DNA from: Candidatus Iainarchaeum sp.
Lineage (GTDB): Archaea; Iainarchaeota; Iainarchaeia; Iainarchaeales; CSSED10-239
Direction: 5' to 3'
Length of the DNA stretch: 29,578 nucleotides
NCBI GenBank assembly: GCA_937968065.1
Contig: CALBUD010000043.1
Coordinates: forward strand, 1 to 29,578
Made by a program: the position numbers and the translations under genes. Below are positions 29 through 24,573 of the stretch, piece after piece. How positions within the stretch are numbered: position 1 is the stretch's first letter; every line of letters starts with the position of its first letter. The notes beneath the pieces were generated by a model. The model ran no database searches, was not told where the DNA came from, and worked only from the letters and a program-made list of their open reading frames with translations.

Positions 29-388
29 TTATTTTCTTGCATATTTACTTTTATAACCAATATATTTCTTTCTAATATGAGCATCTTTACTTTTTCCTGT
101 ATCTGATTCTTCTTCAGCAGGCATTTTTTTAATATTATTTTTTACAGGTACATTTCCTGCGTTAATTAAAATAATATCATCTGCAGATATAACTTTATTA
201 TAAGGTATACTATGCTCAGTTATAATTTTTTTTGCTTCTAATTTAGAATTTACTTTTAAAGGTTGTGTTGTAATAGTTTCTATAACACCTTGCTCTATAT
301 TTACTATTAAATCATGTACTTTTCCTCTATAAGTAGCATCTGTTTGGTATATATCCATACCAAATAATTTAGATATTCTTGTTGTCAT
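29..388 (-). CDS. PRC-barrel domain protein (small archaeal type) with K/E-rich C-terminal tail
   Basis: 119-aa ORF. 'GMDIYQTDATYRGKVHDLIVNIEQGVI' and 'IPYNKVISADDIILI' resemble the PRC-barrel fold signature. Pattern recognition only. Confidence 0.6.
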   Translation of the reverse strand: MTTRISKLFGMDIYQTDATYRGKVHDLIVNIEQGVIETITTQPLKVNSKLEAKKIITEHSIPYNKVISADDIILINAGNVPVKNNIKKMPAEEESDTGKSKDAHIRKKYIGYKSKYARK

Positions 389-1662: not shown

Positions 1663-2181
1663 ATGGTTTTTGGAAAAATACAAATATATACTGGTGATGG
1701 TAAAGGAAAAACTACTGCTGCTATTGGATTATCAATTAGAGCAGTTAGAAGAAATGCAAAAGTATATTTTGTTCAATTTTTAAAAAAACAAAGAACAGGA
1801 GAACAAAAAACATTATCTAAAATAAAAAACATTGTTTTCAAAAGATTTGGGTTTAAAGAATTTATAATAAATAATCAAATTTTAAAAGAACATAGAGAAA
1901 CAACAGAACAAGCAATAAAATATATAGACTCTATTTTAAAAACAAAAAAAATAAATATTTTAGTTTTAGATGAATTAAATGTTATTTTATACTATAAATT
2001 AATTACATTAAAAAAAATAAAAGAAATAATTAATATTTGTAAACAAAAAAATATAGAATTAATAATTACAGGTAGAAAATTAAATAAAAAACTAATAGAT
2101 TTAGCAGATTTAGTAACAGAGATGAAAGAAATAAAACATTATTTTCCTTTACTAAAAGCAAGAAAAGCAATTGAATTTTAA
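1663..2181 (+). CDS. cobA: ATP:cob(I)alamin (corrinoid) adenosyltransferase, CobA/CobO/BtuR family
   Basis: 172 aa. P-loop 'YTGDGKGKTTAAIGLSIRA', then 'VQFLK', 'LVLDELN', 'IITGRK' and 'LADLVTEMKEIKH ... ARKAIEF'. This is the typical CobA-type motif order and length. Confidence 0.85.
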   Translation: MVFGKIQIYTGDGKGKTTAAIGLSIRAVRRNAKVYFVQFLKKQRTGEQKTLSKIKNIVFKRFGFKEFIINNQILKEHRETTEQAIKYIDSILKTKKINILVLDELNVILYYKLITLKKIKEIINICKQKNIELIITGRKLNKKLIDLADLVTEMKEIKHYFPLLKARKAIEF

Positions 2182-2205
2182 TTTAATAAAAAAGGGGTTT
2201 TAATT

Positions 2206-4812
2206 ATGAATATGGTTTTAAAAATTAAAAAAATTACACAAGTTAAAAAAAGAACTGGAGAAATTGTTGATTTTAATAAATTAAAAATAAGAAATGCAAT
2301 ATTAAAAGCAATGAAATCAGTAGATGAAGTTAATGAAAGTTTATTAGATGTAGTTGTAGAAAAAACCATTTTAGTTTTAGAATCAAAATTTATTAATAAA
2401 ATTCCTTCTGTTGAAGATGTTTCAGACGCTATTGAATATGTTTTAATCGCAACCGAGATTACAAATGTTGCAAAATCATTTATTCTTTATAGAGAGGAAA
2501 AAAGAAAATTAAGAGAAACAAAAGAAGAAACAAAAGATATAGAGATTGTAAAAGAGTTAAAAGAAAAAAAAATTACTTTATCAAAACAAGCAACAAATGT
2601 TTTAAATAATTCATATGTTTTTAAAGATTTAGGACTAATCATTTTTTTAGATAGATATTCTTTAAAAACAAAAAGAAATGAAATTGAAGTTGGTGATTTA
2701 ATAATCACAATTATTAAAGAAGATTTTAAATATCCAAAAAAAGATCTAGGCATTGTAAAAAATATTGAAAATAATAAACTTATTTTACATATGATAACAG
2801 GAATTTATGCAGATGATTTTTATAAACACGAATTCGTGCAAGAAATTAGTAAATGTGAAAAACCACAAGAATCTGTTTTTGATACATATAAAAGAGTTTC
2901 AAAAGCTGTTGCAAAAGTAGAAAAAGATGATTTTTTAAAAACAAAATGGTTTGAAGAATTTTATGACCAATTAAAAAATAATCATATCTCTCCTGGAGGA
3001 AGGATTCTTTCAGGTGCTTCAATTGATGATTTAGGATATACATCAAACTTAACTTTATATAATTGTTATGTAATACCTTCTCCAAAAGATTCAAGAAAAT
3101 CAATTATTAAAGATTCAGCGCATCAAATGGTTGAAATTTTTTCAAGAGGTGGTGGGGTTGGTATGTCTTTATCAAGTTTAAGACCTGCTTATGCTTATGT
3201 CAAAGGAGTTCATGGAAGATCTTCTGGATCTGTGTCATGGGGTGGACTTTATTCTTTTCTAACAGGACTTATAGAACAAGGTGGTTCTAGAAGAGGAGCT
3301 TTAATGTTAATGCTTGATGATTGGCATCCTGATATTTATTCTTTTATTGATTCAAAAACAAAAACAGGTGTTTTAGAACATGCAAATATATCTGTAAAAG
3401 TATCTGATGAATTAATGGAAGCTGTAAAAAATGATGGAGATTGGTATCTTGAATTTCCAGATCATGAAAACCCAAATTATTCTGAAATATACGATCAAGA
3501 ATGGGATGGTGATTTAAAAACTTGGAAAGAAAAAGGATATCCTACAAAAATATTTTCAAAAATAAAAGCAAAAGAACTTTGGAGAAAAATAATTAACTCT
3601 GCATGGAAATCAGCAGAGCCTGGTGTTGTTTTCATGGAGAGATACAATAAATTAAGTAATAGTTATTATTTTAATAAAATTGTTGCAACTAATCCTTGTG
3701 GAGAACAAGGACTTCCTCCATGGGGTGTCTGTAATCTTGGACACCTATATCTAGCATCTTTTGCAGATAAAGTTGGAGAAGATGATGTTGGTCCTATTTA
3801 TGAATTTAATTGGGATAAATTAAAAAAATCTGCAAGAGTTTTAACTAGATTTTTAGATAACATTATAGATTTAACTCCTTACTTTTTTGAAGAAAATGAA
3901 AAAATTCAAAAATCTGAAAGAAGAGTTGGTGGGGGAACTTTAGGTCTTGCAGAATTACTTATAAAATTAAGAATTGTTTATGGTTCTCAAGAAAGTTTAA
4001 AATTTATTGATGAACTTTATAAAACAATAACTTGTGAAATGTACACAACTTCTGCATTAATAGCAGAAGAAAAAGGTTTCTTTCCAAAATATGATAAAAA
4101 TAAATTTTTAAACAGTGGATTTGTAAGAGAACTTCCTTTAGAGGTTCAAGAAAAAATAAAAGAAAAAGGGATTAGAAATGTTACATTAACAACTCAAGCA
4201 CCAACAGGATCAACTGGAACCATGCTTGGAACCTCAACAGGTATTGAACCTTATTTTGCTTTTAAATATTATAGACAATCAAGATTAGGTTTCCATGAAG
4301 TTAATGTTCCTTTAGCAGAAGAATATTTAAAAAATGGGGAATTACCAGATTTCTTTATATCTGCAATGAGTTTAACTCCTGATGATCATATAAAAGTACA
4401 AGCAGCTATACAAAAATGGACTGATTCTTCTATAAGTAAAACTGCAAATGTTCCTTCTGATTTTACTGTTGAACAAACAGAAGAGCTTTACATTAAAGCA
4501 TATAATCTTGGTTGTAAAGGTGTTACAATTTATAGAGATTCTTCAAGAGATGAACAAGTTCTTTCAACAAATAAAGATCAAGAAAAATTAAATCAAGAAG
4601 CTATTGATAAAAAAACAGATGCCAAAACTAATAAAAATAAAATACAAAAACAAACAGAAATTGTTGAAGAAAAAAAAGAGTCTGTAGTTTATGGAGATGA
4701 TACTGGAAACACCTGTCCTTCTTGTAAACAAGGAAAAATGATAAAGTTAGGTGGTTGTACAGAATGTTCTGCAGGGTGTGGCTTTAAAGGTTCTTGTGAT
4801 TTAAAAACATAA
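2206..4812 (+). CDS. nrdJ: Class II (adenosylcobalamin-dependent) ribonucleotide reductase with N-terminal ATP-cone and C-terminal Cys-rich zinc-finger tail
   Basis: 868 aa. ATP-cone-like 'VKKRTGEIVDFNKLKIRNAILKAM'. Core motifs 'SGGGVGMSLSSLRP', 'GGSRRGALMLML', 'TNPCGEQGLPPWGVCNLGHL' and 'SISKTANVP'. C-terminal 'CPSCKQGKMIKLGGCTECSAGCGFKGSCD'. AAGGGG SD-like element upstream of the ATG; an alternative ATG lies at 2212. Confidence 0.93.
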   Translation: MNMVLKIKKITQVKKRTGEIVDFNKLKIRNAILKAMKSVDEVNESLLDVVVEKTILVLESKFINKIPSVEDVSDAIEYVLIATEITNVAKSFILYREEKRKLRETKEETKDIEIVKELKEKKITLSKQATNVLNNSYVFKDLGLIIFLDRYSLKTKRNEIEVGDLIITIIKEDFKYPKKDLGIVKNIENNKLILHMITGIYADDFYKHEFVQEISKCEKPQESVFDTYKRVSKAVAKVEKDDFLKTKWFEEFYDQLKNNHISPGGRILSGASIDDLGYTSNLTLYNCYVIPSPKDSRKSIIKDSAHQMVEIFSRGGGVGMSLSSLRPAYAYVKGVHGRSSGSVSWGGLYSFLTGLIEQGGSRRGALMLMLDDWHPDIYSFIDSKTKTGVLEHANISVKVSDELMEAVKNDGDWYLEFPDHENPNYSEIYDQEWDGDLKTWKEKGYPTKIFSKIKAKELWRKIINSAWKSAEPGVVFMERYNKLSNSYYFNKIVATNPCGEQGLPPWGVCNLGHLYLASFADKVGEDDVGPIYEFNWDKLKKSARVLTRFLDNIIDLTPYFFEENEKIQKSERRVGGGTLGLAELLIKLRIVYGSQESLKFIDELYKTITCEMYTTSALIAEEKGFFPKYDKNKFLNSGFVRELPLEVQEKIKEKGIRNVTLTTQAPTGSTGTMLGTSTGIEPYFAFKYYRQSRLGFHEVNVPLAEEYLKNGELPDFFISAMSLTPDDHIKVQAAIQKWTDSSISKTANVPSDFTVEQTEELYIKAYNLGCKGVTIYRDSSRDEQVLSTNKDQEKLNQEAIDKKTDAKTNKNKIQKQTEIVEEKKESVVYGDDTGNTCPSCKQGKMIKLGGCTECSAGCGFKGSCDLKT

Positions 4813-4856
4813 AATAAAAAATAGTTTTTAAATATAAATTAAAAAGTGATTAAAAA

Positions 4857-5294
4857 ATGATAAATGTAAAAAAATTAACCGAAAGTGCAAAAATTCCAGA
4901 AAAAAATCATGAAAACGATGCTGGTTTTGATTTATTTTCTGATGAAGACATAATAATACCATCTATGGAAAGAAGAGTTATAAAAACAGGAATTTCTATA
5001 TCTTTAGAAAATAATTTTGAAAATAATTTTTCAGCATATTTAAGAATAGCACCAAGATCTGGAATGGCCGTTAAAAAAGGAATTAATGTTTTTGCAGGTG
5101 TTGTTGATTTAGAATATAGAGGAGAAATCATGGTTTGTCTTTTTAACTCTTCAAAAGAAAACATTGAAATTTTAAAAGGAGATAAAATCGCACAAATGAT
5201 ACCAACAATTATTTTAAAACAAGAAATTAAAGAAGTTGATTCTTTAGATGATACTGAAAGAGGAGAAAAAGGATTTGGATCTTCTGGTAGGTAA
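4857..5294 (+). CDS. dut: dUTP diphosphatase, classical homotrimeric (bacterial/eukaryal/viral-type) Dut
   Basis: 145 aa with all five Dut motifs: 'DAGFDL', 'APRSGMAVKKGI', 'GVVDLEYRGEI', 'GDKIAQM' and 'ERGEKGFGSSG'. AGTGAT SD-like element 6 nt upstream of the ATG. Confidence 0.9.
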   Translation: MINVKKLTESAKIPEKNHENDAGFDLFSDEDIIIPSMERRVIKTGISISLENNFENNFSAYLRIAPRSGMAVKKGINVFAGVVDLEYRGEIMVCLFNSSKENIEILKGDKIAQMIPTIILKQEIKEVDSLDDTERGEKGFGSSGR

Positions 5295-14894: not shown

Positions 14895-16679
14895 ATGACA
14901 TCCTATATAGATGATTTAGTTAAAAAATATAATTCTGAAAAAGGAGAAGCTTCCTCTTCTAAAGAAAAAAATGATTTACCTTTAAAAAATGAAATTAAAG
15001 ATTTTTCAAAAGAAGGAGAAAAGAAATCAAGCACAGAAGAAAACAAAAATAAAGATGAAAAACCAAAAGAGATTTCTATAGAAGATCTTTCAAGAGAGGA
15101 TGTTTTTCAAAAACCTGTTGATAAAAAAAATAAAGAAGAAGCTATACAAAAATTAAGATCTTTAGAATCAAACAAAGATATTAAACAAGATGAGCTTGTA
15201 GGAGATAAAAACGAACCTTTTGAAAAACAAGAAGAACATGTAAAAGATGCGGTTTTAGTTACAAAGTATGGAGATGTAAAAATCTATAGATTAAAAAGTC
15301 AATCTCTTCTTCATTATTCAGTTCCAGTTCCAAAACCAAACTCCAGTCAAAAAATAATAATTAATACTTTAAAAGAAGCAGCAACAAGGCTTGTATCTTC
15401 AGATCCTTATAAGATAAGAGACCCTTTACAAAGAAAAAACATTTATTATCAAAAAATAATTGATATTTTAGAAACAGCTAAAGAAATAAACATTCCAAAA
15501 CATATGTTTCCTTTTTATGCAGATGCTGTTGTTAAAGAAATGACAGGTTATGGTATGATTGAACCTTTACTTCAAGATGATAAGCTTGAAGAAGTTATGA
15601 TTGTTGGTTCAAATAAACCTGTGTATGTTTATCATATAGATTATGGTATGATGACAACAAATATAACTTTTTTCTCAGATGACGGAATTTATGAAATTAT
15701 TGATAAAATTGCAAGAGGACTTGGAAAAAACATTGATATCTCAAATCCTCTTTTAGATGCAAGACTTCCAGATGGTTCTCGTGTGAATGCAACTGTTCCT
15801 CCAGCTTCAATTGATGGTTCAACTGTAACTATTAGAAAGTTTAGAGAGGATCCTTACACCATAATTGATCTTATTAATTTTAAAACAACAAACATAGAAG
15901 TTGCTGCCTTTTTATGGTGTGTGGTTGAAGGATTTGGAGCAAAACCAGCAAACATTTTAATATCTGGTGGTACAGGATCTGGAAAAACTACAACTTTAAA
16001 TGTTCTTGCAAACTTTATACCAGAAGCTGACAGAATTCTAACTATTGAAGACACTGCAGAATTAAAACTTCCATTAAAGCATGTTATTAGATTTGAAGGA
16101 AGACCACCTGGTCTTGAAGGAAAAGGAGAATTAAGTTTAGATATTTTAACTAAAAACACATTAAGAATGAGACCTGATAGAATAATTGTAGGTGAAATTA
16201 GACACAAAGAAGCAACCACTCTTTTCACTGCTATGAACACAGGACACGATGGATGTATGGGAACTGTGCACGCAAACTCTGCAAAAGAAACCTTAGTAAG
16301 ATTAACTTCTCCACCAATGGATGTTCCTCCTTTAATGCTTGCAGGAATTGATTTTATAATTATTCAAAAAAGATTAAGAACTGCAAAAGGACAAGTTAGA
16401 AGAATAACTGCAATTGCAGAAGTTGTTGGTGTTTTAGAAGGTGATCCTAAAATCAACATGGTCTTTGCATGGAATCCTGAAACAGATTCTCTTGAAAGAA
16501 CAAAAGAACCTATCTATTATTTTGATGTTATAAAAACTTATACCAATTATAATGACGAGCAAATAAAACAAAAAATAGAATTTAGAGCAAAATTATTAAA
16601 AGAAATGGTTGATAAAAAAATAAGAAGTATTGAAGATGTTGCAGAAGAAGTACAAAAAGAATATATTTTGAAAAGATGA
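14895..16679 (+). CDS. Type IV pilus assembly ATPase (T2SSE/FlaI/PilB/TadA superfamily) with ~115-aa charged N-terminal extension
   Basis: 594 aa. Walker A 'ISGGTGSGKTTTLNVL', Asp box 'ILTIEDTAEL', Walker B 'RPDRIIVGEIR', His box 'GHDGCMGTVHANSA'. GGTGAT SD 6 nt upstream of the ATG. Confidence 0.9.
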   Translation: MTSYIDDLVKKYNSEKGEASSSKEKNDLPLKNEIKDFSKEGEKKSSTEENKNKDEKPKEISIEDLSREDVFQKPVDKKNKEEAIQKLRSLESNKDIKQDELVGDKNEPFEKQEEHVKDAVLVTKYGDVKIYRLKSQSLLHYSVPVPKPNSSQKIIINTLKEAATRLVSSDPYKIRDPLQRKNIYYQKIIDILETAKEINIPKHMFPFYADAVVKEMTGYGMIEPLLQDDKLEEVMIVGSNKPVYVYHIDYGMMTTNITFFSDDGIYEIIDKIARGLGKNIDISNPLLDARLPDGSRVNATVPPASIDGSTVTIRKFREDPYTIIDLINFKTTNIEVAAFLWCVVEGFGAKPANILISGGTGSGKTTTLNVLANFIPEADRILTIEDTAELKLPLKHVIRFEGRPPGLEGKGELSLDILTKNTLRMRPDRIIVGEIRHKEATTLFTAMNTGHDGCMGTVHANSAKETLVRLTSPPMDVPPLMLAGIDFIIIQKRLRTAKGQVRRITAIAEVVGVLEGDPKINMVFAWNPETDSLERTKEPIYYFDVIKTYTNYNDEQIKQKIEFRAKLLKEMVDKKIRSIEDVAEEVQKEYILKR

Positions 16680-16680
16680 C

Positions 16681-16692
16681 TTTTATTTTTTT
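16681..16692 (+). terminator. Oligo-T tract (T4-A-T7) immediately after the ATPase stop codon
   Basis: Archaeal termination commonly uses oligo-T. A 120-nt AT-rich gap follows before the platform gene. The AT-rich background lowers specificity. Confidence 0.3.
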
Positions 16693-16799
16693 AAAATAAA
16701 TTATAAAAAACTATAAATATAAAAAGGAATAGGTAATATATTTAAATATAATAGTTTACATTATATATAGAAAAAAAATAATAAAAATATTTTTTTAAT

Positions 16800-17942
16800 A
16801 TGGACTCAAAGAAAATAGAACTTTTAAAAAGTGATTTAGATAAATCTAAAAAATCAAAAGACTTAGATATAGATCTTGATGCTGTCCAAAATATTGTTGC
16901 AAAAATGAAAAAGAAAGATAGTAAAATAAGTTCTGAATCTTTGCAAGATAATAATTTAAAAGAACTAAGATCTGCAATATCACAAGGAAGACTTTCACAA
17001 CTAGATGTTAATTCAGCATCAAAGCTTGCAGAAAATCTTGATAGTGATTTAGAAAAATCTGCAGTCAAATATTATTCTCCATTTAAAAGATTTATTGATT
17101 CTATTGTTCTATCTATTTTAAAAAACCCTTTAGGTAAAAAAATATCTTTTCTTTTAACTTCTGCAAACTATAAAAGGACTTTAGTTCAACATCTTGTAAT
17201 TTCTACAATTTTTTCATTAATTCTTGCAACTATTATAACTTTTATGTTATTTTTTATTTTTTTAGCAACAAAACCAGTGTGGCTTATCTCTTTGTTATTT
17301 ATTTGGCCATTTTTATTCTTTATAGGACTTTATTCCTTTTCTTATTTAGTTCCTTTACAAAAAGCAAAGATGCGTGGAATAATGATTGATGTAGAGCTTC
17401 CATTTGCTTTAAGACACATTGCAACTGAACTTCAAGCAGGGATTGGGCTTTATAAAGTTTTACAGTCTGTCGCTGCAAATGACTATGGTGTTCTTTCAGA
17501 AGAGATGAATAGAACTATTCTTGAAATTGAAAATGGAACTGATACAAAAACAGCTTTAAGACATGCTGCTTTAAGAAGTCAATCTAAAAACTATAATGTT
17601 GCATTATTCCACATTGTAAGAACTTTAAACACAGGTGGAAATCTTGCAAACACAATTAACAGTGTTGCAGACTCTGTTGCTTTTGATCTTTTAGAAAATG
17701 CAAAAACCTTTGGAGAAAAAATGAATTTCTTTGGAATTATTTTTATTTTTGTTGCTATTGTACTTCCTGTTTTTGCAGCAATTTTAGGTGCGATTGCAAA
17801 TGCTCCAATAGGACAAGACGGAGCGTTGTTTTTACCAGGAGTTATGACTTCGACAACTCTTGCAATTATTTTCTTAGTTGCTTTACCAATAATATTTATA
17901 TTTTTAATATTTTATATAAAAATGATAGAACCAAAAATGTGA
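16800..17942 (+). CDS. Pilus platform membrane protein, single T2SSF domain (TadB/TadC/EpdJ-K-like), with ~90-aa charged N-terminus
   Basis: 380 aa. T2SSF-like cytoplasmic domain 'LPFALRHIATELQAGIGLYKVLQSVAAN...ENGTDTKTALRHAA...LNTGGNLANTINSVAD' flanked by TM segments. Confidence 0.8.
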   Translation: MDSKKIELLKSDLDKSKKSKDLDIDLDAVQNIVAKMKKKDSKISSESLQDNNLKELRSAISQGRLSQLDVNSASKLAENLDSDLEKSAVKYYSPFKRFIDSIVLSILKNPLGKKISFLLTSANYKRTLVQHLVISTIFSLILATIITFMLFFIFLATKPVWLISLLFIWPFLFFIGLYSFSYLVPLQKAKMRGIMIDVELPFALRHIATELQAGIGLYKVLQSVAANDYGVLSEEMNRTILEIENGTDTKTALRHAALRSQSKNYNVALFHIVRTLNTGGNLANTINSVADSVAFDLLENAKTFGEKMNFFGIIFIFVAIVLPVFAAILGAIANAPIGQDGALFLPGVMTSTTLAIIFLVALPIIFIFLIFYIKMIEPKM

Positions 17943-17945
17943 TAA

Positions 17946-18848
17946 ATGTTGACATCAAAAAGATTAGAAAGATACCAAGTATTTTTATTAGGGTTGAAAA
18001 TAAAAGTTCCTGCTAAAGTATGGATTCTTTTAATTTTCTTTTTAAGTCTGATCTTAGGTGTGTTAGGTTTTTTAATAGATGTAAAGATAGGTATTCTATT
18101 ATTTGTAAATGGTTTAGTTCTAGGTCTTGGACTTCCAATGTATGTTTATTATAAAAAAATAAGAACTATTGAAAGATATTGGCCAGAAGCTTTAAAATTA
18201 ATAGCAGACACCATGAAAGCAGGATCTTCTTTTGATTATGCTTTAAGAGAAGTAACCTCAGCTGACTTTGGTCCAGTTTCTTTTGAGATTAGTGAAGCTA
18301 TAAGAAGACTTGAGATGGGAGATACCATGCATGTTGCATTAAGTTATCTTTCATTAAGAATAGAATCTAAAATTGTAAGAAGAACAGTTACATTAATACA
18401 AGAATCTTTAAGATCAGGTGCACAACTTGCTGATGTTTTAGAAGAAATTGCAAATGATACTAAACAATTATATAGAATTAAAAAAGAAAGACATACAAAA
18501 ACAATGCTTCAAACAATCTTTATTGTTGCAGCAAGTGCTGTTATTGCTCCATTTATTTTTGGAATGACAAGAGTTATAACTGGTTTTTTAACAGATATAG
18601 CAGCAACAACAGGTATTGCAACAGCAGAAGCTCTTGAAGTTTCTTTAGTTACACAAAATAGAATCTTTTTATTCTTAGATATTTATATTGTTATTGAAAT
18701 CTTTGCAGCTTCTGCAATGATTAGTGTTATGAGAGAAGGAGATTTAAGTTTTGTTGTAATTTTCTTCCCTGTGTTAGTTACTTTAGGATATATTATTTAT
18801 TTCTTATCTCAAGTAGTTTTAAATTTAATGCTTTCAGGATTGGTATAA
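17946..18848 (+). CDS. Pilus platform membrane protein, second single-T2SSF-domain paralogue
   Basis: 300 aa. 'WPEALKLIADTMKAGSSFDYALREVTS...GDTMHVALSYLS...LRSGAQLADVLEEIAND' flanked by TM segments. Starts 3 nt after the upstream stop. Confidence 0.8.
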   Translation: MLTSKRLERYQVFLLGLKIKVPAKVWILLIFFLSLILGVLGFLIDVKIGILLFVNGLVLGLGLPMYVYYKKIRTIERYWPEALKLIADTMKAGSSFDYALREVTSADFGPVSFEISEAIRRLEMGDTMHVALSYLSLRIESKIVRRTVTLIQESLRSGAQLADVLEEIANDTKQLYRIKKERHTKTMLQTIFIVAASAVIAPFIFGMTRVITGFLTDIAATTGIATAEALEVSLVTQNRIFLFLDIYIVIEIFAASAMISVMREGDLSFVVIFFPVLVTLGYIIYFLSQVVLNLMLSGLV

Positions 18849-18849
18849 A

Positions 18850-19032
18850 ATGAAATCAAAAATAAAAAGAATATTAAAAGAGAATAAGGGTCAGATTTCT
18901 TTAGAGTTAATTATTATATTAGGTGTAGTTATATTAGTAGCTTTAACTGTTGGTATATATCTTAAACAGACCTCTGCAAAAAACGTTGGAACAAGCATAA
19001 GTTATCAAAGAATTGTAGAGGGAGGAAGTTAG
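18850..19032 (+). CDS. Flp-sized class III signal-peptide prepilin (mature ~46 aa)
   Basis: 60 aa. 'KENKG|QISLELIIILGVVILVALTVGIY' is a basic leader, K-G-Q cleavage motif, Glu at +5 and one hydrophobic helix. No Cys. ATG lies 1 nt after the platform gene stop. Confidence 0.7.
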   Translation: MKSKIKRILKENKGQISLELIIILGVVILVALTVGIYLKQTSAKNVGTSISYQRIVEGGS

Positions 19033-19053
19033 AAACTAGGAAAGCTTTAGTTT
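19033..19053 (+). terminator. Weak hairpin AAACTA-N9-TAGTTT directly after the small pilin stop, followed by a T-rich stretch
   Basis: 6-bp perfect stem (19033-19038 / 19048-19053), extendable by two G-U pairs, then 'gttttctt'. Confidence 0.25.
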
Positions 19054-19106
19054 GTTTTCTTAAAAAGAAAGTTATATAAAGTTATTGCTTTACTAATTAA
19101 TTAATT

Positions 19107-19127
19107 TAACTTATGAAAAATAAGTTA
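19107..19127. repeat. 8-bp inverted repeat TAACTTAT-GAAAA-ATAAGTTA upstream of the candidate major pilin gene
   Basis: Read directly. Centre is ~64 nt upstream of the ATG at 19181. Could be an operator or a 5'-leader stem-loop. Confidence 0.6.
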
Positions 19128-19180
19128 TGCACTTAATGTGTAAAAAAATATTAAAAAAAATATAAAAAGGTGTTTAAAAA

Positions 19181-19705
19181 ATGAATAAAAAAATAAAAGG
19201 ACAAGGTGCGCTTGAATACCTTCTATTAATAGGTGGTGCAGTTTTAATCGCAGTAATTGTTATTGCGTTACTTGTTGGTATGGGTGGTCAATCAAGAGAT
19301 ACTGCTACAGAGCAAGGAGAAAGAGCTCAACAAGCAACAGATATTGCTCAACCAGCTCAAATTACAGGTATTGAATCATTTAGAGATGATTGTGTAGATA
19401 CTCCTGCTAATGCAAAATTTTCATTATCATGGGTTCCTGTTGGTGACGGTGGTGTTTATGAATTAATAATTAAAGATTCTAGAGGTAATATATTAGACGT
19501 AAGTTTAGATGATATGGATACAAATGATTTAGATCCTATAAAAACAGCTAATGTTACTGGTTCTGTTAATATCAATTCAGAAGCAGACGGAAATTCAATT
19601 AGTCCTGCAAATAATTGTGGAGACACATTCACTGCAGTAATTAAAACAACTAAAAACCAACAAACTGTAAATTCTCAATCAAGAATTTTCAGATGGTCAA
19701 ACTAG
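19181..19705 (+). CDS. Class III signal-peptide pilin with acidic beta-rich globular domain; candidate major pilin
   Basis: 174 aa. 'KKIKG|QGALEYLLLIGGAVLIAVIVIALLV'. Two Cys in the globular part ('DDCVD', 'NNCGD'). AGGTG SD 8 nt upstream. Own AT-rich upstream region, and a hairpin plus long oligo-T downstream. Confidence 0.8.
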   Translation: MNKKIKGQGALEYLLLIGGAVLIAVIVIALLVGMGGQSRDTATEQGERAQQATDIAQPAQITGIESFRDDCVDTPANAKFSLSWVPVGDGGVYELIIKDSRGNILDVSLDDMDTNDLDPIKTANVTGSVNINSEADGNSISPANNCGDTFTAVIKTTKNQQTVNSQSRIFRWSN

Positions 19706-19716
19706 AATTATAAATT

Positions 19717-19758
19717 AATATAGATTTTAATTAATCTATATTTTTTTTATTTTTTTTT
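19717..19758 (+). terminator. 10-bp stem hairpin followed by T8-A-T9 after the candidate major pilin gene
   Basis: 19717-19726 (AATATAGATT) pairs with 19733-19742 across a 6-nt loop. Oligo-T runs follow at 19741-19748 and 19750-19758. It starts 12 nt after the TAG stop. Confidence 0.55.
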
Positions 19759-19817
19759 AAAAATTAATTTAAATATTTATAAAAAAAGAAGATAAAATAA
19801 AAAGAAAGTGATATATA

Positions 19818-20249
19818 ATGGATTTTATAAAAAATAAAGGAAAAGGACAAGGTGCCTTAGAATATTTATTAATTATTGGAGCTGCATTAATTGTCGCTGT
19901 TACAGTTATTGTTCTTGTAATTAGTATGAGCGGATCTAGTACAGAACAAGCAGGACAACAAGGTGAAACCTTAAGTACATTAATCGATAATGCATTAAAT
20001 CCTCCTGTTGTAACTTATATTAATGGTTGTGGAGATGGTGCAAAAATACATTTAATTGAAACTGAGACAAATGGTACTTATAAAATTTATAAGGATGGAA
20101 CTGCTGTTGGAGGCATATATACTGCAAGTAATGGAATTATTACTTTAGATTTAGAATCCGCAGAGTCAACAGATAGAATAACAGTTAGTTTAGTAAAAAA
20201 CAACAGAGAATCAAGACCTTCAACACCATCAAGTAGATGTACTCCATAA
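19818..20249 (+). CDS. Class III signal-peptide pilin, paralogue of 19181..19705
   Basis: 143 aa. 'NKGKG|QGALEYLLIIGAALIVAVTVIVLVI'. Two Cys ('NGCGD', 'SRCTP'). 'TYKIYKDGTAVG...ITVSLVKNNRESRPS' resembles FN3-like beta-sandwich patterns. GTGAT 5 nt upstream of the ATG. Confidence 0.8.
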   Translation: MDFIKNKGKGQGALEYLLIIGAALIVAVTVIVLVISMSGSSTEQAGQQGETLSTLIDNALNPPVVTYINGCGDGAKIHLIETETNGTYKIYKDGTAVGGIYTASNGIITLDLESAESTDRITVSLVKNNRESRPSTPSSRCTP

Positions 20250-20277
20250 ATAACATAATTAAAATTACAGAAAACAT

Positions 20278-20472
20278 ATGATTTCCAAAAAATTACAAGA
20301 TATTTTAAATGACCAAAAAGGTCAAGTCTCTTTAGAATATCTTGTGATGATTATCTTTGGAATGATTTTAGTTATAACAACCGGACTTGTTATTCTAAAT
20401 TTAAATAGTTTAGTAACTGTTGCAAAAGCTAAAATATTGACTTACAGGGATAACATTTTATCTTCTTTATAG
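20278..20472 (+). CDS. Flp-sized class III signal-peptide prepilin (second copy)
   Basis: 64 aa. 'NDQKG|QVSLEYLVMIIFGMILVITTGLVIL'. No Cys and a short C-terminal tail. Confidence 0.7.
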   Translation: MISKKLQDILNDQKGQVSLEYLVMIIFGMILVITTGLVILNLNSLVTVAKAKILTYRDNILSSL

Positions 20473-20503
20473 TTTTTTTTAAAATAAAAACTAAATTTTT
20501 TTT
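20473..20503 (+). terminator. Two T8 tracts after the second small pilin gene
   Basis: T8 at 20473-20480 directly after the stop, and T8 at 20496-20503. AT-rich background. Confidence 0.3.
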
Positions 20504-20517
20504 AAAAGGAAACAACT

Positions 20518-21639
20518 ATGTTTAATTTTTCTTTTTTTATATTTTCAATAACTCTTTTATTTTTAATAATTGCAAGTTTTTCAGATTTAAAAAAAAGAAC
20601 CATACCAAACAGTTTAGTTTTTTCTCTTTTAATCTTAGGAGTTATTATGAAGATTATAGAAGCAATTACTTTTTCTGAAATTAATATTTTCTTAAATGCT
20701 TCTTTATCTTTTATAATTACTGTTTTTGTATCTTACATTTTATGGGAAGTTGGTCTTTTTGCAGGTGGAGATTTAAAACTTTTTGCAGCAATCTCTTTTC
20801 TAAATCCTTTCAATCTTAATTTTTTAGGTTTTATTTTTTCTTTTGGAGTTATTAATTGGCCAATCTTTGCATTAACTTTAATAATTGTAAGTATTCTTTC
20901 AACAGCACCATTACTTATCCTTCATTCTTTGTATTATTTTATATTTAAAGGACATCATTTTATTTTATGGGAAATTTTAAAATCAAAGAACAACATTTCT
21001 TCATTTATTAATTCTGTTTTAATTATTTTCTTTATAAGTTCTTTTCTAAATATATTCTCACTAAATATATCTTATTTAATTTACTTTTTATTTTCTATTT
21101 TCTTTTTGTTGTTTTTTAGAAAGATAGAAAAACACAACAAAAACCATTTTTATTATTTAATATCTATTTTCTATGTTTGTTTAATAATATATTCAATTAT
21201 TTGTAAACAAAACCTCTTCTCTTTTTATGATTTTATAACAATTGTAATTATGATAAAACTAATCTTTTTACTTGTTACAATCTATAGAATAATTTCAGAG
21301 AAAATACTTAAAGAAACTAAAAAAATAAAAGATTTAAAAGAAGGAGATGTTGTATATAATAATTATTATAAAATAGGTTATAAAACTATTGAAAAAAACA
21401 TATCTTTTATTAATTATATTAAACAAACTATAAAAAACAACTATTCAAAAAATCTAATTATTGATTCTAGAAAGGTTGGTGGCTTAACTTCTAAAGACAT
21501 AACCTTTTTAAAGAGTTCTTATAAACATAATTTAGAGAAACCAGTAATTTTAAAGAAGACAATTCCATTTACCCCTTCAGTTTTAATAGGGTATCTAATA
21601 TTAAATGTTTTGGGAGATTTTATCTGGATGTTAATTTAA
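20518..21639 (+). CDS. Prepilin peptidase, A24 family GxGD aspartyl protease (EppA/PibD/FlaK-like) with large insertion
   Basis: 373 aa. First catalytic Asp 'FSDLKKRTIPN' (D23), second 'FAGGDLKLFAAI' (D85). C-terminal helix 'IPFTPSVLIGYLI' is typical of the family end. Extra TM segments and a ~85-aa soluble segment lie between them. Confidence 0.85.
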   Translation: MFNFSFFIFSITLLFLIIASFSDLKKRTIPNSLVFSLLILGVIMKIIEAITFSEINIFLNASLSFIITVFVSYILWEVGLFAGGDLKLFAAISFLNPFNLNFLGFIFSFGVINWPIFALTLIIVSILSTAPLLILHSLYYFIFKGHHFILWEILKSKNNISSFINSVLIIFFISSFLNIFSLNISYLIYFLFSIFFLLFFRKIEKHNKNHFYYLISIFYVCLIIYSIICKQNLFSFYDFITIVIMIKLIFLLVTIYRIISEKILKETKKIKDLKEGDVVYNNYYKIGYKTIEKNISFINYIKQTIKNNYSKNLIIDSRKVGGLTSKDITFLKSSYKHNLEKPVILKKTIPFTPSVLIGYLILNVLGDFIWMLI

Positions 21640-21680
21640 ATAAATTTTATAAAAAAGGAAGAAAGAGAGTGTGTTTATAA

Positions 21681-22160
21681 ATGAAAAATAAAAAAGGCCA
21701 AATTGCTATTGAATATATTATTTTTATATCTGTTTTATTATTATTTTTTCAAGCAATAGTATATCCTAATATAAATTTTTCAGAAAATGTGATTACTGAT
21801 ATTTATAATGCGACCCAGACAAAACAATCTATTGAAAAATTAGCAGAAGGCATTTCTTCTTTTTCTAGTTCTTCAGGATATGGTACTCGTTCAGTTTATT
21901 TCTATCTCCCAAATAATGGGGAATTTAAAGGTTGTGTGCAAGGAGGGGGAGTTACAAACCTTTCTTATTCTGTACAATTATCTCAACAAAATCCAAAACC
22001 AAGTTATATTTCTTCATGTGATGTAAATGCTCTTTGTAATTTTAAAAGAAAAATTTATATTGGCAAGGCCAATATTACTTGTACTGCTGTAGGCCCTGGT
22101 TTTAATGGTTATTTAAAAATTACAAAAGAAGAAGATGGTGATATAATTGTTGAACCATAA
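21681..22160 (+). CDS. Class III signal-peptide minor pilin-like protein
   Basis: 159 aa. 'KNKKG|QIAIEYIIFISVLLLFF'. Four Cys and four N-x-S/T sequons (NFS, NAT, NLS, NIT). Confidence 0.7.
   Translation: MKNKKGQIAIEYIIFISVLLLFFQAIVYPNINFSENVITDIYNATQTKQSIEKLAEGISSFSSSSGYGTRSVYFYLPNNGEFKGCVQGGGVTNLSYSVQLSQQNPKPSYISSCDVNALCNFKRKIYIGKANITCTAVGPGFNGYLKITKEEDGDIIVEP
22137..22142 (+). promoter_or_regulatory. Internal Shine-Dalgarno-like GGTGAT inside the 3' end of the upstream pilin gene, serving the TTG-initiated overlapping pilin gene
   Basis: GGTGAT read directly. TTG codons at 22147 and 22150. Confidence 0.5.
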
Positions 22161-22512
22161 AGCTCAAACAAGCATAGAGTTTTTAATGGTAATTTTATTT
22201 TTAATTCTTATAGCTATAACTGTTAGTGTTTTTTTAACTTCAACTTTTGATATTAGTGTTTCTGTTTATAAAACTAAAAACAGAACTTTAGAATATATTT
22301 CTTTATATCAAGATCCTTTGTATATTCAAAGCATAACTTATAATTATAATAATACTAATCTTGATATGTTTGTTTCTTTAAATAAAACACCAAATAACCT
22401 TTGTCCTGATCAAAACTATTTTGAGGAAAAATATAACTATGGATCTTTAAAAGATTATTTACAAACAAACACTAAATTTGACACAGTTACAATAACATTA
22501 TATTGTAACTAA
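22147..22512 (+). CDS. Class III signal-peptide minor pilin-like protein (TTG start, overlaps upstream gene)
   Basis: 121 aa. 'LNHKA|QTSIEFLMVILFLILIAITV'. Two Cys and three sequons. The first in-frame ATG would delete the signal motif. GGTGAT at 22137-22142 lies 4-7 nt upstream of tandem TTG codons (22147, 22150). Confidence 0.6.
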   Translation: MLNHKAQTSIEFLMVILFLILIAITVSVFLTSTFDISVSVYKTKNRTLEYISLYQDPLYIQSITYNYNNTNLDMFVSLNKTPNNLCPDQNYFEEKYNYGSLKDYLQTNTKFDTVTITLYCN

Positions 22513-22526
22513 AAGGAAAAATAATT

Positions 22527-23024
22527 ATGGATAAAAATTTATTATATTTACAAATCTTGTTTATGTTTGCAGTAATTGTAAACATATTTGTACAAAACAA
22601 ATTATTTTTAAATATATTGTTGGTGTTGCTTGTCTTTTTATTCTTTTTTAAAGAAGTGGATAATTATGTTTATAATAGAAATAAATATATGTATGTTGGA
22701 ATAGGTTTTTCTACAATTTTAGTTTTATTTATCTTAACTGAATATATAACTCACATATATTTCTTAGTATTTTTTATGTGTGGTGTTGTGTTATATCTTT
22801 ATCTTTATAAAGTTTTATTTAACACAAGTTATGGAACTGTTATAAAAAGTACAACTACAAGCATAACATTTAAAATTGAAGATTCTTTTTTTAAATCAAA
22901 AAAAGAACATACTTTAAAATATTCAAAAAAAGTTCCAATAGGGTCTACTGTCTTAGTTGAATTATCAAAATCAATTGTTTCTAAAAAACCCATAAAGGTT
23001 AAAAAAATAATTCCTAAACCATGA
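22527..23024 (+). CDS. Membrane protein (3-4 TM) with ~65-aa K-rich beta-type C-terminal domain, function unknown
   Basis: 165 aa. Hydrophobic N-terminal two-thirds, then 'YGTVIKSTTTSITFKIED...VPIGSTVLVELSK'. Starts 14 nt after the last pilin-like gene. Its stop overlaps the next start (ATGA). Confidence 0.55.
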   Translation: MDKNLLYLQILFMFAVIVNIFVQNKLFLNILLVLLVFLFFFKEVDNYVYNRNKYMYVGIGFSTILVLFILTEYITHIYFLVFFMCGVVLYLYLYKVLFNTSYGTVIKSTTTSITFKIEDSFFKSKKEHTLKYSKKVPIGSTVLVELSKSIVSKKPIKVKKIIPKP

Positions 23025-23389
23025 CTTTTAAATCTTTAAATATTTATTTAATAATTCTTACAGTTACTTCTCTTTTTATTTTATTTTTATATACTTTTTT
23101 TTATACTCCTTTAGAAATATCTTTGCTTGAAAACAACACTCTTCATTTAGAAAAAGTTGTTTCTGTTTCTGGAAATTTAAAAAACTTAGAGTTAAAAGAA
23201 AATAATTTATTTTTAGAGGCGTGCAACTATTCAAAATGTCTAAAAGCAGTTTATTTTAACATTTCTAAAAATAATCATGAATTACTAAATAACGCTTATC
23301 TTTATAATAAGCAAGTTAAGTTAACTGGTAAATACACTCTATATAATAAAAAAGAAGAAATTATAATTTATAAATTTGAGGTTAAATGA
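23021..23389 (+). CDS. Single-pass membrane-anchored protein with OB-fold-like ectodomain, function unknown
   Basis: 122 aa. N-terminal TM 'IYLIILTVTSLFILFLYTFF'. 'VVSVSGNLKNLELKENNLFLEACNYSKCLKAVYF...KQVKLTGKYTLYNKKEEIIIYKFEV' has the strand pattern of small OB-fold domains. CxxxxC pair. ATGA overlaps at both ends. Confidence 0.5.
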   Translation: MTFKSLNIYLIILTVTSLFILFLYTFFYTPLEISLLENNTLHLEKVVSVSGNLKNLELKENNLFLEACNYSKCLKAVYFNISKNNHELLNNAYLYNKQVKLTGKYTLYNKKEEIIIYKFEVK

Positions 23390-24573
23390 TATTTGATATT
23401 ATCTTAGGTTGTTTTTTAGGTTTTATTTTTGGTTTAATTCCCTCTCTTCACATTAATTTTATATCTTATCTATTCTTATATTTTGGATTATTTTTAGTTT
23501 TTCCAGATAAGTTTTATTTTTTCTTAAGTCTTTCAATCTCTCAATTAATAACAAGTTATCTTCCTCAGACTTTTTTCTCAGTTCCAAATGTTGAAAATAT
23601 AATGAATCTATTTCCTCTGCAAAGATTATTTTTAAAAGGAGAGGCTTTAAAAGCAATTTTTATAACTTTTGTAGGTTCTTTTTTTGGAGCTATCTTTGCA
23701 ATACTTTTACTTCCATTTCTTTATCTTCTTTTTTCTTCTCTAATAGGCTTTCATTTTTTTATTTCTTTTGCTATTCTTTTTGTACTTTTAAGTTTTGTTT
23801 ATTATCAAGAAAATCTAAAAGAAAGAATTATTGTTATTTTTATAATTCTCTCTTCTGGCCTTTTAGGTATTTTAACTTTAAAATACAATGTTTTTTTAAA
23901 AGAGTCTTTATTTGTGTGTGTTGTAGGATTATTTACTCTTCCTTTGTTATTTAAATCTATATTTGAAAAACAAACAAGAGTTTTTCAAAAAATAAATTTA
24001 AAAGAAATAAAATTAAATTTAAAAAAATCAATGATTTTTTCGTTTATGGGTTCTTTAGCATCAATGTTTATTATTCTAGTACCTTCTTTTTCATCCTCAC
24101 AAGCAGGAACCATGGTTTCAAGAATTAAAAGAAATCTTTCTTCTGAAGAATATATTTTATTATTTTCTAGTATATCCATAAGTGCTTTAATATTTTCCTA
24201 TTTTCTTGCTATGTTTTTTTATAAGCCAAGGCTAGGTTATTTTGCAATATTATTACTTGAAAAACAAATAATTCCAAGAACAGAGATTTTCTTTTTTATA
24301 ATAACTGTTCTTTTATCTGTTTGTTTAATTTTATTTATATTAAAATCAATAATCAAAGATATAATTGTTTTTATAAACAAACAAAATCTTACAAAAATAA
24401 ATGTATTTATCTTAATTTTTTCAATAGTTTTAGTTTTTTTAATATCTGGTATAAAGGCCTTACCAATTTTATTTTTAAGTGCTGTAATTGGGTATCTTCC
24501 TCTGCACTATAAAAAATCAAGAGTGATTTTAATGGCATACATTATGATTCCAACTCTTTTATTTTACCTATAA
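23386..24573 (+). CDS. Polytopic membrane protein (~10-11 TM), possibly TctA/DUF112-like
   Basis: 395 aa. N-terminus 'ILGCFLGFIFGLIPSLH' weakly resembles the TctA-family G-x-x-PG start. Otherwise no motif. Family assignment is tentative. Confidence 0.5.
   Translation: MIFDIILGCFLGFIFGLIPSLHINFISYLFLYFGLFLVFPDKFYFFLSLSISQLITSYLPQTFFSVPNVENIMNLFPLQRLFLKGEALKAIFITFVGSFFGAIFAILLLPFLYLLFSSLIGFHFFISFAILFVLLSFVYYQENLKERIIVIFIILSSGLLGILTLKYNVFLKESLFVCVVGLFTLPLLFKSIFEKQTRVFQKINLKEIKLNLKKSMIFSFMGSLASMFIILVPSFSSSQAGTMVSRIKRNLSSEEYILLFSSISISALIFSYFLAMFFYKPRLGYFAILLLEKQIIPRTEIFFFIITVLLSVCLILFILKSIIKDIIVFINKQNLTKINVFILIFSIVLVFLISGIKALPILFLSAVIGYLPLHYKKSRVILMAYIMIPTLLFYL

Follow-up and report, generated by a model that had tools for sequence, protein, structure and literature searches.

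What are two neighbouring genes for, whose products start almost identically and then go separate ways? The question is raised by contig CALBUD010000043.1 of Candidatus (Ca.) Iainarchaeum sp. (assembly GCA_937968065.1), whose 29,578 nucleotides (nt) are called the window throughout and in which two adjacent open reading frames (ORFs), termed A and B, encode proteins with a common N-terminus and different globular parts, or heads. A sequence-only reading had taken them for paralogous, acidic, disulfide-stapled pilins serving as surface adhesins under diversifying selection. According to the analysis reported here, A and B are the precursors of EppA-dependent type IV pilins (Epd-like, also called system 1 or clade 1) of Ca. 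Forterrea-like Iainarchaeota, members of the DPANN archaea, and a probability of about 0.8 is given to this assignment. DPANN cells are presumed to rely on partners, and the surface of a pilus would be the first contact for a host, a phage or DNA.

The assignment is carried in the first place by the N-termini. In both precursors a short basic leader ending in Gly-1 is directly followed by a hydrophobic helix, MNKKIKG/QGALEYLLLIGGAVLIAVIVIALLVG in A and MDFIKNKGKG/QGALEYLLIIGAALIVAVTVIVLVIS in B (the slash marks the predicted cleavage site), so that both contain KGQGALEYLL[LI]IG. Matches to PF04021 (Class_IIIsignal, formerly DUF361) reach 29.3 bits for A and 24.7 bits for B, above the Pfam cut-off of 23.7. 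None of 69 relatives of A departs from Gln+1 and Glu+5 (its Q8 and E12), and the B family is likewise invariant here; both residues are listed as features of the EppA substrates of Methanococcus maripaludis (PMC3875500). With Tyr+6, the QGALEY of A and B also contains the Flp-type motif G/xxxxEY, and the pair Glu+5-Tyr+6 is found in four of the six class III proteins of the locus, namely A, B, mini-pilin 2 and the pilin of 159 amino acids (aa) (window 19202-19219, 19848-19865, 20323-20340 and 21699-21716). The near-identity of the two starts, pointed out before, extends to the DNA: the window contains just two copies of the 14-mer AAAGGACAAGGTGC, one at 19196 and the other at 19842, against an expectation of 0 from 100 shuffles.

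The second line of evidence is the genomic company of the two genes (Table 1). In the cluster at 14895-24573 every gene lies on the plus strand and, from B onward, neighbours are separated by gaps of at most 45 nt or overlap. The ATPase gene, accompanied by a neighbouring pair of platform genes with one T2SSF domain apiece, reproduces the layout of the Epd-like system. The hallmarks of this system are a split platform, an EppA-type peptidase of its own and pilins with Gly-1, Gln+1 and Glu+5; it has been reported from methanogens, Thermococcales and some DPANN archaea (PMC4858521, PMC3875500, PMC6668835, preprint 10.64898/2026.04.22.720090). The peptidase has about nine hydrophobic segments and its best NCBIfam match is EppA, aligned over positions 5-330 of 334, with 48.6 bits against a cut-off of 450. 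The class III signals, together with the peptidase, ATPase and platform genes in the same operon, thus bear out the claim that both proteins are pilins. Mini-pilin 1 starts 2 nt past the platform gene and is basic (pI, the isoelectric point, 10.1); mini-pilin 2 is 64-87% identical in five of seven syntenic loci and 39-53% in the remaining two, with dN = 0 between Forterrea strains. Two other classes were considered. An archaellin system is excluded by the split platform and by the lack, in the window, of FlaF/G/H, ArlCDE or a single fused FlaJ. As to the Flp pilins of bacterial Tad systems, mature A (167 aa) and B (133 aa) exceed the usual 40-60 residues and carry heads; the Flp size criterion (about 40-60 residues, no globular head) fits the two mini-pilins instead.

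From a comparative perspective, the Epd system of M. maripaludis (EpdA-E, EppA, EpdJ/K, EpdL) resembles the one described here in the Gly-ending class III leader, Gln+1, Glu+5 and PF04021 N-terminus of its pilins, in the two single-domain platform genes and a putatively dedicated long-form A24 peptidase, and in the joint presence of head-less pilins of about 60 aa and headed ones of 120-175 aa. It differs in that its parts are distributed over at least four loci, as opposed to one cluster here, and in that its pilins are without the Flp-type EY pair, whereas A and B have Tyr+6 (PMC3875500). Also unlike the Epd pilins, the A and B heads belong to no Pfam or NCBIfam family and have a conserved Cys pair each.

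What the analysis demonstrates directly is the sequence motifs, the families to which the machinery belongs, the predicted folds, conservation, synteny and relative rates. The course of events that we infer, which covers cleavage, filament assembly, the disulfide, the major subunit and the ligand of the pilus, would be the following. The long-form A24 peptidase of the operon would cut the basic leader after Gly-1, leaving a mature protein that begins with Gln+1 and carries Glu+5-Tyr+6. The near-invariant hydrophobic helix would at first hold the pilin in the membrane, from which the FlaI/TadA-like ATPase and the split platform would pull it into a filament; there the helices would pack in the core, and the acidic, Lys-poor heads, Ig-like in A and FN3-like in B and each probably stapled by one disulfide, would form the exposed surface.

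Table 1. Features of the pilus cluster, given as positions in the window.
Feature	Position	Strand	Remarks
Pilus assembly ATPase, FlaI/TadA-like	14895..16679	+	PF00437 T2SSE 166 bits; best NCBIfam matches FlaI and TadA, both below cut-off
Platform protein 1, TadB/EpdJ-like	16800..17942	+	PF00482 57.9 bits, one T2SSF domain
Platform protein 2, TadC/EpdK-like	17946..18848	+	PF00482 56.9 bits, one T2SSF domain; weak FlaJ/UpsF matches
Mini-pilin 1, 60 aa, head-less	18850..19032	+	KG/QISLEL; PF04021 32.1 bits; kept in all syntenic loci
Putative BRE/TATA-like promoter element of A	19066..19080	+	AGAAAgtTATATAAA; some 100 nt ahead of the ATG
Two small hairpins in the predicted 5' leader of A	19107..19142	+	Fold z-score -3.35
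GGTG ribosome-binding motif	19169..19172	+	8 nt ahead of the start codon of A
Pilin A precursor, 174 aa	19181..19705	+	Leader MNKKIKG at 19181-19201; mature Gln+1, Glu+5-Tyr+6; predicted helix residues 10-53
Pilin A head, Ig-like (predicted)	19349-19702 (residues ~57-174)	+	Cys71 at 19391-19393; Cys146 at 19616-19618
Terminator-like end of the A transcript	19717..19758	+	Hairpin 19717-19742, then T8-A-T9 tract
Pilin B precursor, 143 aa	19818..20249	+	Leader MDFIKNKGKG at 19818-19847; predicted helix residues 11-60
Pilin B head, FN3-like (predicted)	residues ~61-143	+	Cys71 at 20028-20030; Cys141 at 20238-20240
Mini-pilin 2, 64 aa, head-less	20278..20472	+	KG/QVSLEY; highly conserved
Long-form A24 prepilin peptidase, EppA-like	20518..21639	+	PF01478 and PF06819 above cut-off; Asp23 in DLKKRTIP, GGD84
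Pilin-like protein, 159 aa	21681..22160	+	KG/QIAIEY; 4 Cys
Pilin-like protein, 121 aa	22147..22512	+	KA/QTSIEF; 2 Cys (orthologues 2 or 0)
Polytopic membrane protein	22527..23024	+	Lys-rich tail; conserved in the Forterrea-like clade
Single-pass membrane protein with OB-fold domain, 122 aa	23021..23389	+	CNYSKC; 4-nt overlap with both neighbours
TctA-like membrane protein	23386..24573	+	PF01970 96.6 bits; about 11 hydrophobic segments; closes the co-oriented cluster

For A, 359 relatives were found at E <= 0.01, the best of them 50-56% identical over the full length and all of them annotated either not at all or as "class III signal peptide-containing protein"; its genome matches are metagenome-assembled genomes of Iainarchaeota/Diapherotrites, among them the closed Ca. 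Forterrea multitransposorum genome. The order mini-pilin, A (one to three tandem copies), B (one copy), mini-pilin, peptidase and two further pilins is kept in at least ten species representatives; GCA_015657875.1 has the same order and Ca. Forterrea is also among the syntenic genomes. In the alignment of A, residues 8-39 are invariant or nearly so, whereas the columns of the head average about 2-3 bits of entropy, with W84, G91 and a TTKNxQTVxS...W motif conserved. A k-mer-limited search returned 11 relatives of B, which by the syntenic loci is as widespread a family as A. The N-terminal stretches of about 55 residues of A and B align with an hhalign probability of 99.7% (E 2.8e-26). The heads do not (probability 1%), and their homology was rejected, the resemblance of ..TTKNxQT.. 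to ..VKNNRE.. being suggestive and not significant. The earlier description of the two genes as paralogous therefore holds for the N-terminus and fails for the heads: A and B are two distinct, old, syntenic families with only the assembly helix in common, and not recent duplicates. The A-type N-terminus recurs at 60-100% identity in dozens more Iainarchaeota loci in which the downstream sequence is unlike A, and is thus conserved much more widely than any single head. Such N-termini also appear in contigs (L017, L033, L049, L041 and L061) of assemblies filed under Bacteroidetes, Chloroflexi, Falkowbacteria or Thaumarchaeota, which are probably mis-binned Iainarchaeota contigs; L041 and L049 bear the OB/TctA gene pair as well.

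As for the heads, the AlphaFold model of A, built on an alignment of 69 sequences, has a mean predicted local distance difference test score (pLDDT) of 88 and consists of a helix at residues 10-53 followed by seven or eight strands. Its Foldseek matches in the PDB are Ig-like sandwiches only (E about 4e-3 to 1e-1, best 3.6e-3, target-normalised template-modelling (TM) score TMt at most 0.60), among them the full-length Natrinema pilins PilA2 (8gi2) and PilA1 (9myg), with probabilities of 0.96-0.98. The model of B, from 11 sequences, has a pLDDT of 73, with a helix at residues 11-60 and seven strands, and FN3 domains dominate its 50 best matches (target-normalised TM 0.55-0.67, probability 1.0). 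At the fold level, the A head is thus predicted to be an Ig-like and the B head an FN3-like beta-sandwich, which agrees with what had been guessed from sequence pattern, without membership in a Pfam family at the sequence level. The Pfam/NCBIfam scan assigned neither head to any family; for fn3 (PF00041) and Ig families in particular, A had no match and B only Ig_RIMBP2 (E 0.025; 15 bits, the cut-off being 27). The A head alone gave just summed weak matches to multi-repeat Ig_3/fn3 proteins, and PDB sequence relatives of the A and B profiles were discarded as chance or repeat-driven (YcnJ, E 0.04; antibody light chains, E about 1; armadillo repeats). Among the archaeal type IV pilins and archaellins known, a long helix bearing a beta-sandwich is the usual build, with which the Natrinema matches agree; the architecture is thus expected rather than surprising. 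In both models the supposed Q/E/G-rich linker between helix and head is the second half of one continuous helix, and that part of the sequence-only reading does not stand. A and B add two uncharacterised head families, one Ig-like with 359 relatives and the other FN3-like, to the EppA-type archaeal pilins.

The composition of the two proteins sets them apart from their surroundings. Mature A has 5 Lys and a pI of 4.22, mature B has 4 Lys and a pI of 4.67, in agreement with the counts previously given; Lys amounts to 4.6% in A and 4.9% in B, against a median of 9.4% in a background of 65 soluble ORFs, a small set drawn from the window and seven syntenic (hence related) loci rather than from a whole proteome. 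Lys contents of 5% or below occur in only 1.5% of these 65 ORFs, and further pilins of the same locus account for most of the remaining low-Lys ones, which makes A and B real outliers. Lys poverty is a family trait, with a median of 3.3% across 120 relatives of A, and the B orthologues are Lys-poor as well. Acidity, also claimed for both, is consistent in the A family (median mature pI 4.5, n = 120) and less so among B orthologues, whose precursors range from pI 4.6 to 9.0. Within a window of 22-30% G+C, A and B have the highest G+C of 31 ORFs (0.335 and 0.319) while their third-position G+C is ordinary; the bias is therefore an amino-acid and not a codon effect.

No other part of the locus evolves as fast as the heads. 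When the window is compared with seven syntenic loci, the machinery proteins are 56-84% identical, the A head 29-40% and the B head 9-42%. Between Ca. Forterrea and a close relative (L008), on a background of about 6% nucleotide divergence, the A head differs by 36% and the spacer past it by 56%, and divergence returns to 5.5% at the start of B (L002 6001-6607 against L008). The divergent head and spacer are an allele-replacement cassette, with the conserved helix on one side and the start of B on the other, and A is the sole gene of the cluster swapped between close strains. The dN/dS ratio is 0-0.18 in the A helix and 0.27-0.58 in the heads, the latter calculated for three strain pairs as well as for three tandem paralogues found in relatives; dS is also elevated in the swapped A allele. 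Positive selection on whole head domains is rejected, given that the ratio nowhere exceeds 1, and the diversifying selection earlier proposed finds no support in this test; the rates fit relaxed constraint combined with recombinational exchange. In tandem A paralogues (L007 5194-7032; L018 5513-7373) the dS of the helix is 0.4-0.6, against 1.0-1.2 in the heads, which suggests gene conversion or a strong codon-level constraint on the 5' part of the gene.

In relatives, the A module is put to use as a display scaffold. Two large proteins, P0149 (970 aa) and P0151 (1433 aa), start with the A-type signal, helix and head and continue with six to nine CHB_HEX_C_1/Fn3_assoc repeats accompanied by cadherin-like or Ig_7 domains; P0156 (417 aa) combines an A-type module with Laminin_G_3, and P0142 (354 aa) carries an insertion of about 190 residues nested in the head. 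An exhaustive search with the A head alone gave only 20 clusters at E <= 1e-3. Since the A module bears Laminin_G_3 or CHB_HEX_C_1/Fn3_assoc arrays in these relatives, an adhesive or recognition role of the A family is plausible, and of the earlier idea of surface adhesins under diversifying selection it is this half that survives. The swapping of A alleles, the reuse of the module in lectin-like and long repeat adhesins, and the operon link to candidate archaeal DNA-uptake genes give the locus an interest beyond the assignment itself. Ca. Forterrea also has an orphan A-like pilin of 424 aa (L015 5959-7233). Adjoining it on the minus strand is a gene for a 702-aa protein (L015 3783-5891) which, judged by eye, looks like an asparagine-synthase-like N-terminus fused to a PP-loop ATPase; PP-loop ATPases of the diphthamide-synthase family occur in clade 1 pilus loci (PMC4858521).

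The function of such a pilus admits of another answer, which the sequence-only reading did not take up and which is compatible with the assignment of A and B to the Epd-like pilins: its main job might be the capture of DNA for uptake instead of adhesion to a host or surface, with the OB protein and the TctA-like channel encoded at the end of the cluster receiving the DNA. The odds of this are put a little short of even. Natural transformation of M. maripaludis requires each of the following: the Epd pilus genes, MMJJ_13020 (an OB fold with one transmembrane helix) and its TctA-like neighbour MMJJ_13030 (PMC10133366). In the window an OB/TctA pair joined by 4-nt gene overlaps lies downstream of the pilins. 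A homologue search with the 122-aa ORF gave two relatives only, and the OB family was built from the fetched loci instead; 24 of its 26 members match PF01336 (best E 2.5e-15) and its profile matches the OB folds of RPA32, ExoVII and AspRS, whereas WD40 matches of the same profile were set aside as summed-repeat artefacts. Counterparts of the OB/TctA region (window 22527-24573) are present in loci L001, L004, L006, L007, L010, L011, L018-L022, L028 and L034-L079. Where Iainarchaeota loci extend at least 5.5 kb downstream of an A- or B-type pilin, a co-oriented TctA-like ORF is kept in 22 of 25, usually directly preceded by the OB protein. Judged by domain content and arrangement only, the pair would be homologous to MMJJ_13020/13030. 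Several points tell against DNA capture. The window's own OB copy is too diverged to match PF01336 by itself and stays below Pfam significance; the TctA-like protein has been put forward as DNA transporter in M. maripaludis and even there this is still a hypothesis (PMC10133366); and acidic, Lys-poor heads (pI 4.2-4.7) would be poor binders of DNA. Because of this acidity A and B are unlikely DNA receptors, for which the basic mini-pilin 1 or the OB protein would be better candidates.

A bolder proposal, held tentatively and with somewhat less confidence than DNA capture as such, is that the cluster at 14895-24573 encodes by itself a complete archaeal machine for DNA uptake, in a DPANN member with a reduced genome, comprising an Epd-like pilus built from or coated by A and B, an outward-facing OB receptor and a TctA-like channel. 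If true, this would be the first genomic, operon-level link of three components found scattered by genetics in Methanococcus, and the scavenging of nucleotides or DNA would be a core trait of these symbionts. The MMJJ_13020/13030 pair sits apart from the pilus genes in M. maripaludis (PMC10133366), whereas OB/TctA forms the 3' end of the pilus operon here; dependence on an Epd-type pilus would be common to both, as far as can be read from gene content. This linkage, which is unmentioned in the archaeal pilus surveys examined, supports the proposal that the OB/TctA pair is an archaeal DNA receptor and channel, and makes it testable by comparative genomics in dozens of species.

As to which subunit builds the shaft, A is most likely the filament-forming, surface-defining subunit and B most likely a partner or minor pilin. 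A is the best candidate for the abundant subunit because it has a promoter, leader and terminator of its own and occurs in tandem and orphan copies; it is found in one to three tandem copies and also as orphans, B as a single copy that is separated from the peptidase and the rest of the cluster by short gaps only. The element at 19066-19080 would act as an archaeal promoter, to judge from its sequence: in an alignment of the regions upstream of A, AGAAA-nn-TATATAAA is invariant across eight orthologous loci. The second leader hairpin, ACACTTnATGTGT, is conserved in four loci, AAGGTG is present in eight of eight without a single alignment register, and the leader as a whole might be a long, structured and regulatory 5' untranslated region. 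T-rich tracts lie downstream of A in orthologous loci too, and the mini-pilins are without promoter, leader or terminator signals of this kind. A scan for sigma-70 promoters and bacterial terminators, with 16 promoter-like sites against 12 expected, relies on bacterial models that are uninformative for an archaeon.

Other observations weigh against the assignment or against A as the main subunit. The EppA and FlaI NCBIfam matches lie far below their curated cut-offs, the B model is of moderate confidence and based on 11 sequences, and neither model has a Foldseek match at E <= 1e-3. Moreover, in M. maripaludis, whose Epd system is the only one studied so far, the major pilin, MMP1685, is a head-less protein of 74 aa, and the locus-encoded EpdA-C of 130-156 aa are minor pilins (PMC3875500); since the locus described here also has two head-less mini-pilins, A and B could be minor. 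According to this alternative, the shaft would be made of a head-less mini-pilin (18850-19032 or 20278-20472), as in M. maripaludis Epd and in Flp/Tad, whereas the task of A and B would be either to initiate assembly or to serve as adhesins at the tip. It draws strength from the head-less main pilins of system 1 in general (preprint 10.64898/2026.04.22.720090, PMC4858521), from the good conservation of both mini-pilins and from the large adhesin extensions on the A module in relatives, which are typical of tip pilins. It fits less well with the invariant promoter element and the terminator of A, as compared with mini-pilins wedged among machinery genes, with the allele replacement of A, and with an A-type N-terminus far more widely conserved than any one head. 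Two more points speak against this alternative. MTH60 of Methanothermobacter presumably carries a head domain. This clade 1 major pilin is of a different family from the Methanococcus pilin of about 70 aa, and the presence of one to three tandem copies and orphans, as in A, is a criterion for major pilins (PMC4858521). On balance, minor-pilin status for A and B is a real possibility, which we nevertheless place clearly on the less probable side.

The cysteines raise a narrower question. Each protein has two, as had been counted, and the even numbers noticed elsewhere in the locus (4 in the 159-aa pilin, 2 in the 121-aa pilin, the CNYSKC of the 122-aa ORF) are likewise correct. In the A family C71 is invariant and C146 is found in at least 90% of 69 relatives; among 120 relatives, exactly two Cys are present in 105 and an even number in 116. 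Ten of 11 B relatives have two Cys, and both are conserved. Cys71 comes just after strand 1 in both models, and its partner directly ahead of the last strand but one (A) or within the final strand (B), an order that would place the two at the same end of the sandwich in A as in B. From the conserved pair, one disulfide per head is predicted as probable. That the cysteines are instead free thiols, bind a metal or cross-link the head to a second subunit is an improbable alternative: the anoxic groundwater habitat makes extracellular disulfides less favoured (relatives come from CO2-rich deep aquifers), the window has no thiol oxidoreductase and four of the 120 A relatives have an odd count, whereas the family-wide pattern and the strand order just described, the alternation between 2 and 0 Cys in the 121-aa pilin family and a Pyrobaculum arsenaticum pilin described with bond-forming cysteines (preprint 10.64898/2026.04.22.720090) speak for the bond. 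That A and B are not filament subunits at all, being membrane-retained class III surface proteins or part of a short, bindosome-like pseudopilus, is very improbable: class III signals do serve non-pilus archaeal proteins, and membrane-retained pilins of Haloferax can mediate adhesion (PMC4371748), but a full assembly machine is co-encoded, a near-invariant helix of 30 residues fits core packing, and the Pfam/NCBIfam scan found no solute-binding domain in A or B.

Among known systems other than Epd, the PilA1-PilA6 pilins of Haloferax volcanii have a near-identical hydrophobic N-terminus and differing C-terminal parts, each of them being able to act as major pilin (PMC4371748), and in Iainarchaeota the A-type N-terminus similarly recurs with many different heads. 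Unlike A and B, the PilA proteins are PibD substrates (RAVS/DAVS, no Gln+1/Glu+5), are not co-located with the machinery and belong to another pilus clade (PMC4371748). The bacterial Tad/Flp system (Flp, TadE/TadF, TadV, TadA, TadB/TadC), inferred to derive from an Epd-like archaeal system (PMC6668835), is alike in its split platform, TadA-like ATPase, G/xxxxEY motif and tiny pilins beside larger pseudopilins, and unlike in that no secretin or TadZ was seen in the window and Flp has only a third of the size of A and B; neither gave a TadE Pfam match at E <= 0.1. PilA1 and PilA2 of Natrinema sp. J7-2 share the N-terminal helix and beta-sandwich head and are among the best Foldseek matches to A, at E about 1e-2, TM about 0.3 and 14% identity; at the sequence level A has no PDB match.

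An exact record look-up returned nothing for the A protein of the window or for P0132, a near-identical variant of B, and these pilins are unmentioned in the Ca. Forterrea genome paper and the groundwater omics literature checked. Rfam and tRNA scans of the window gave no match; its archaeal markers are an RFC small subunit, the archaeal C-terminal domain of the A24 peptidase and the class III signal peptides. Upstream of the cluster, at 1663-5294, a corrinoid adenosyltransferase (PF02572) is directly followed by a ribonucleotide reductase with an ATP-cone and then by a dUTPase. This small block of nucleotide metabolism agrees with the proposal that the lifestyle of Ca. Forterrea centres on nucleotides.

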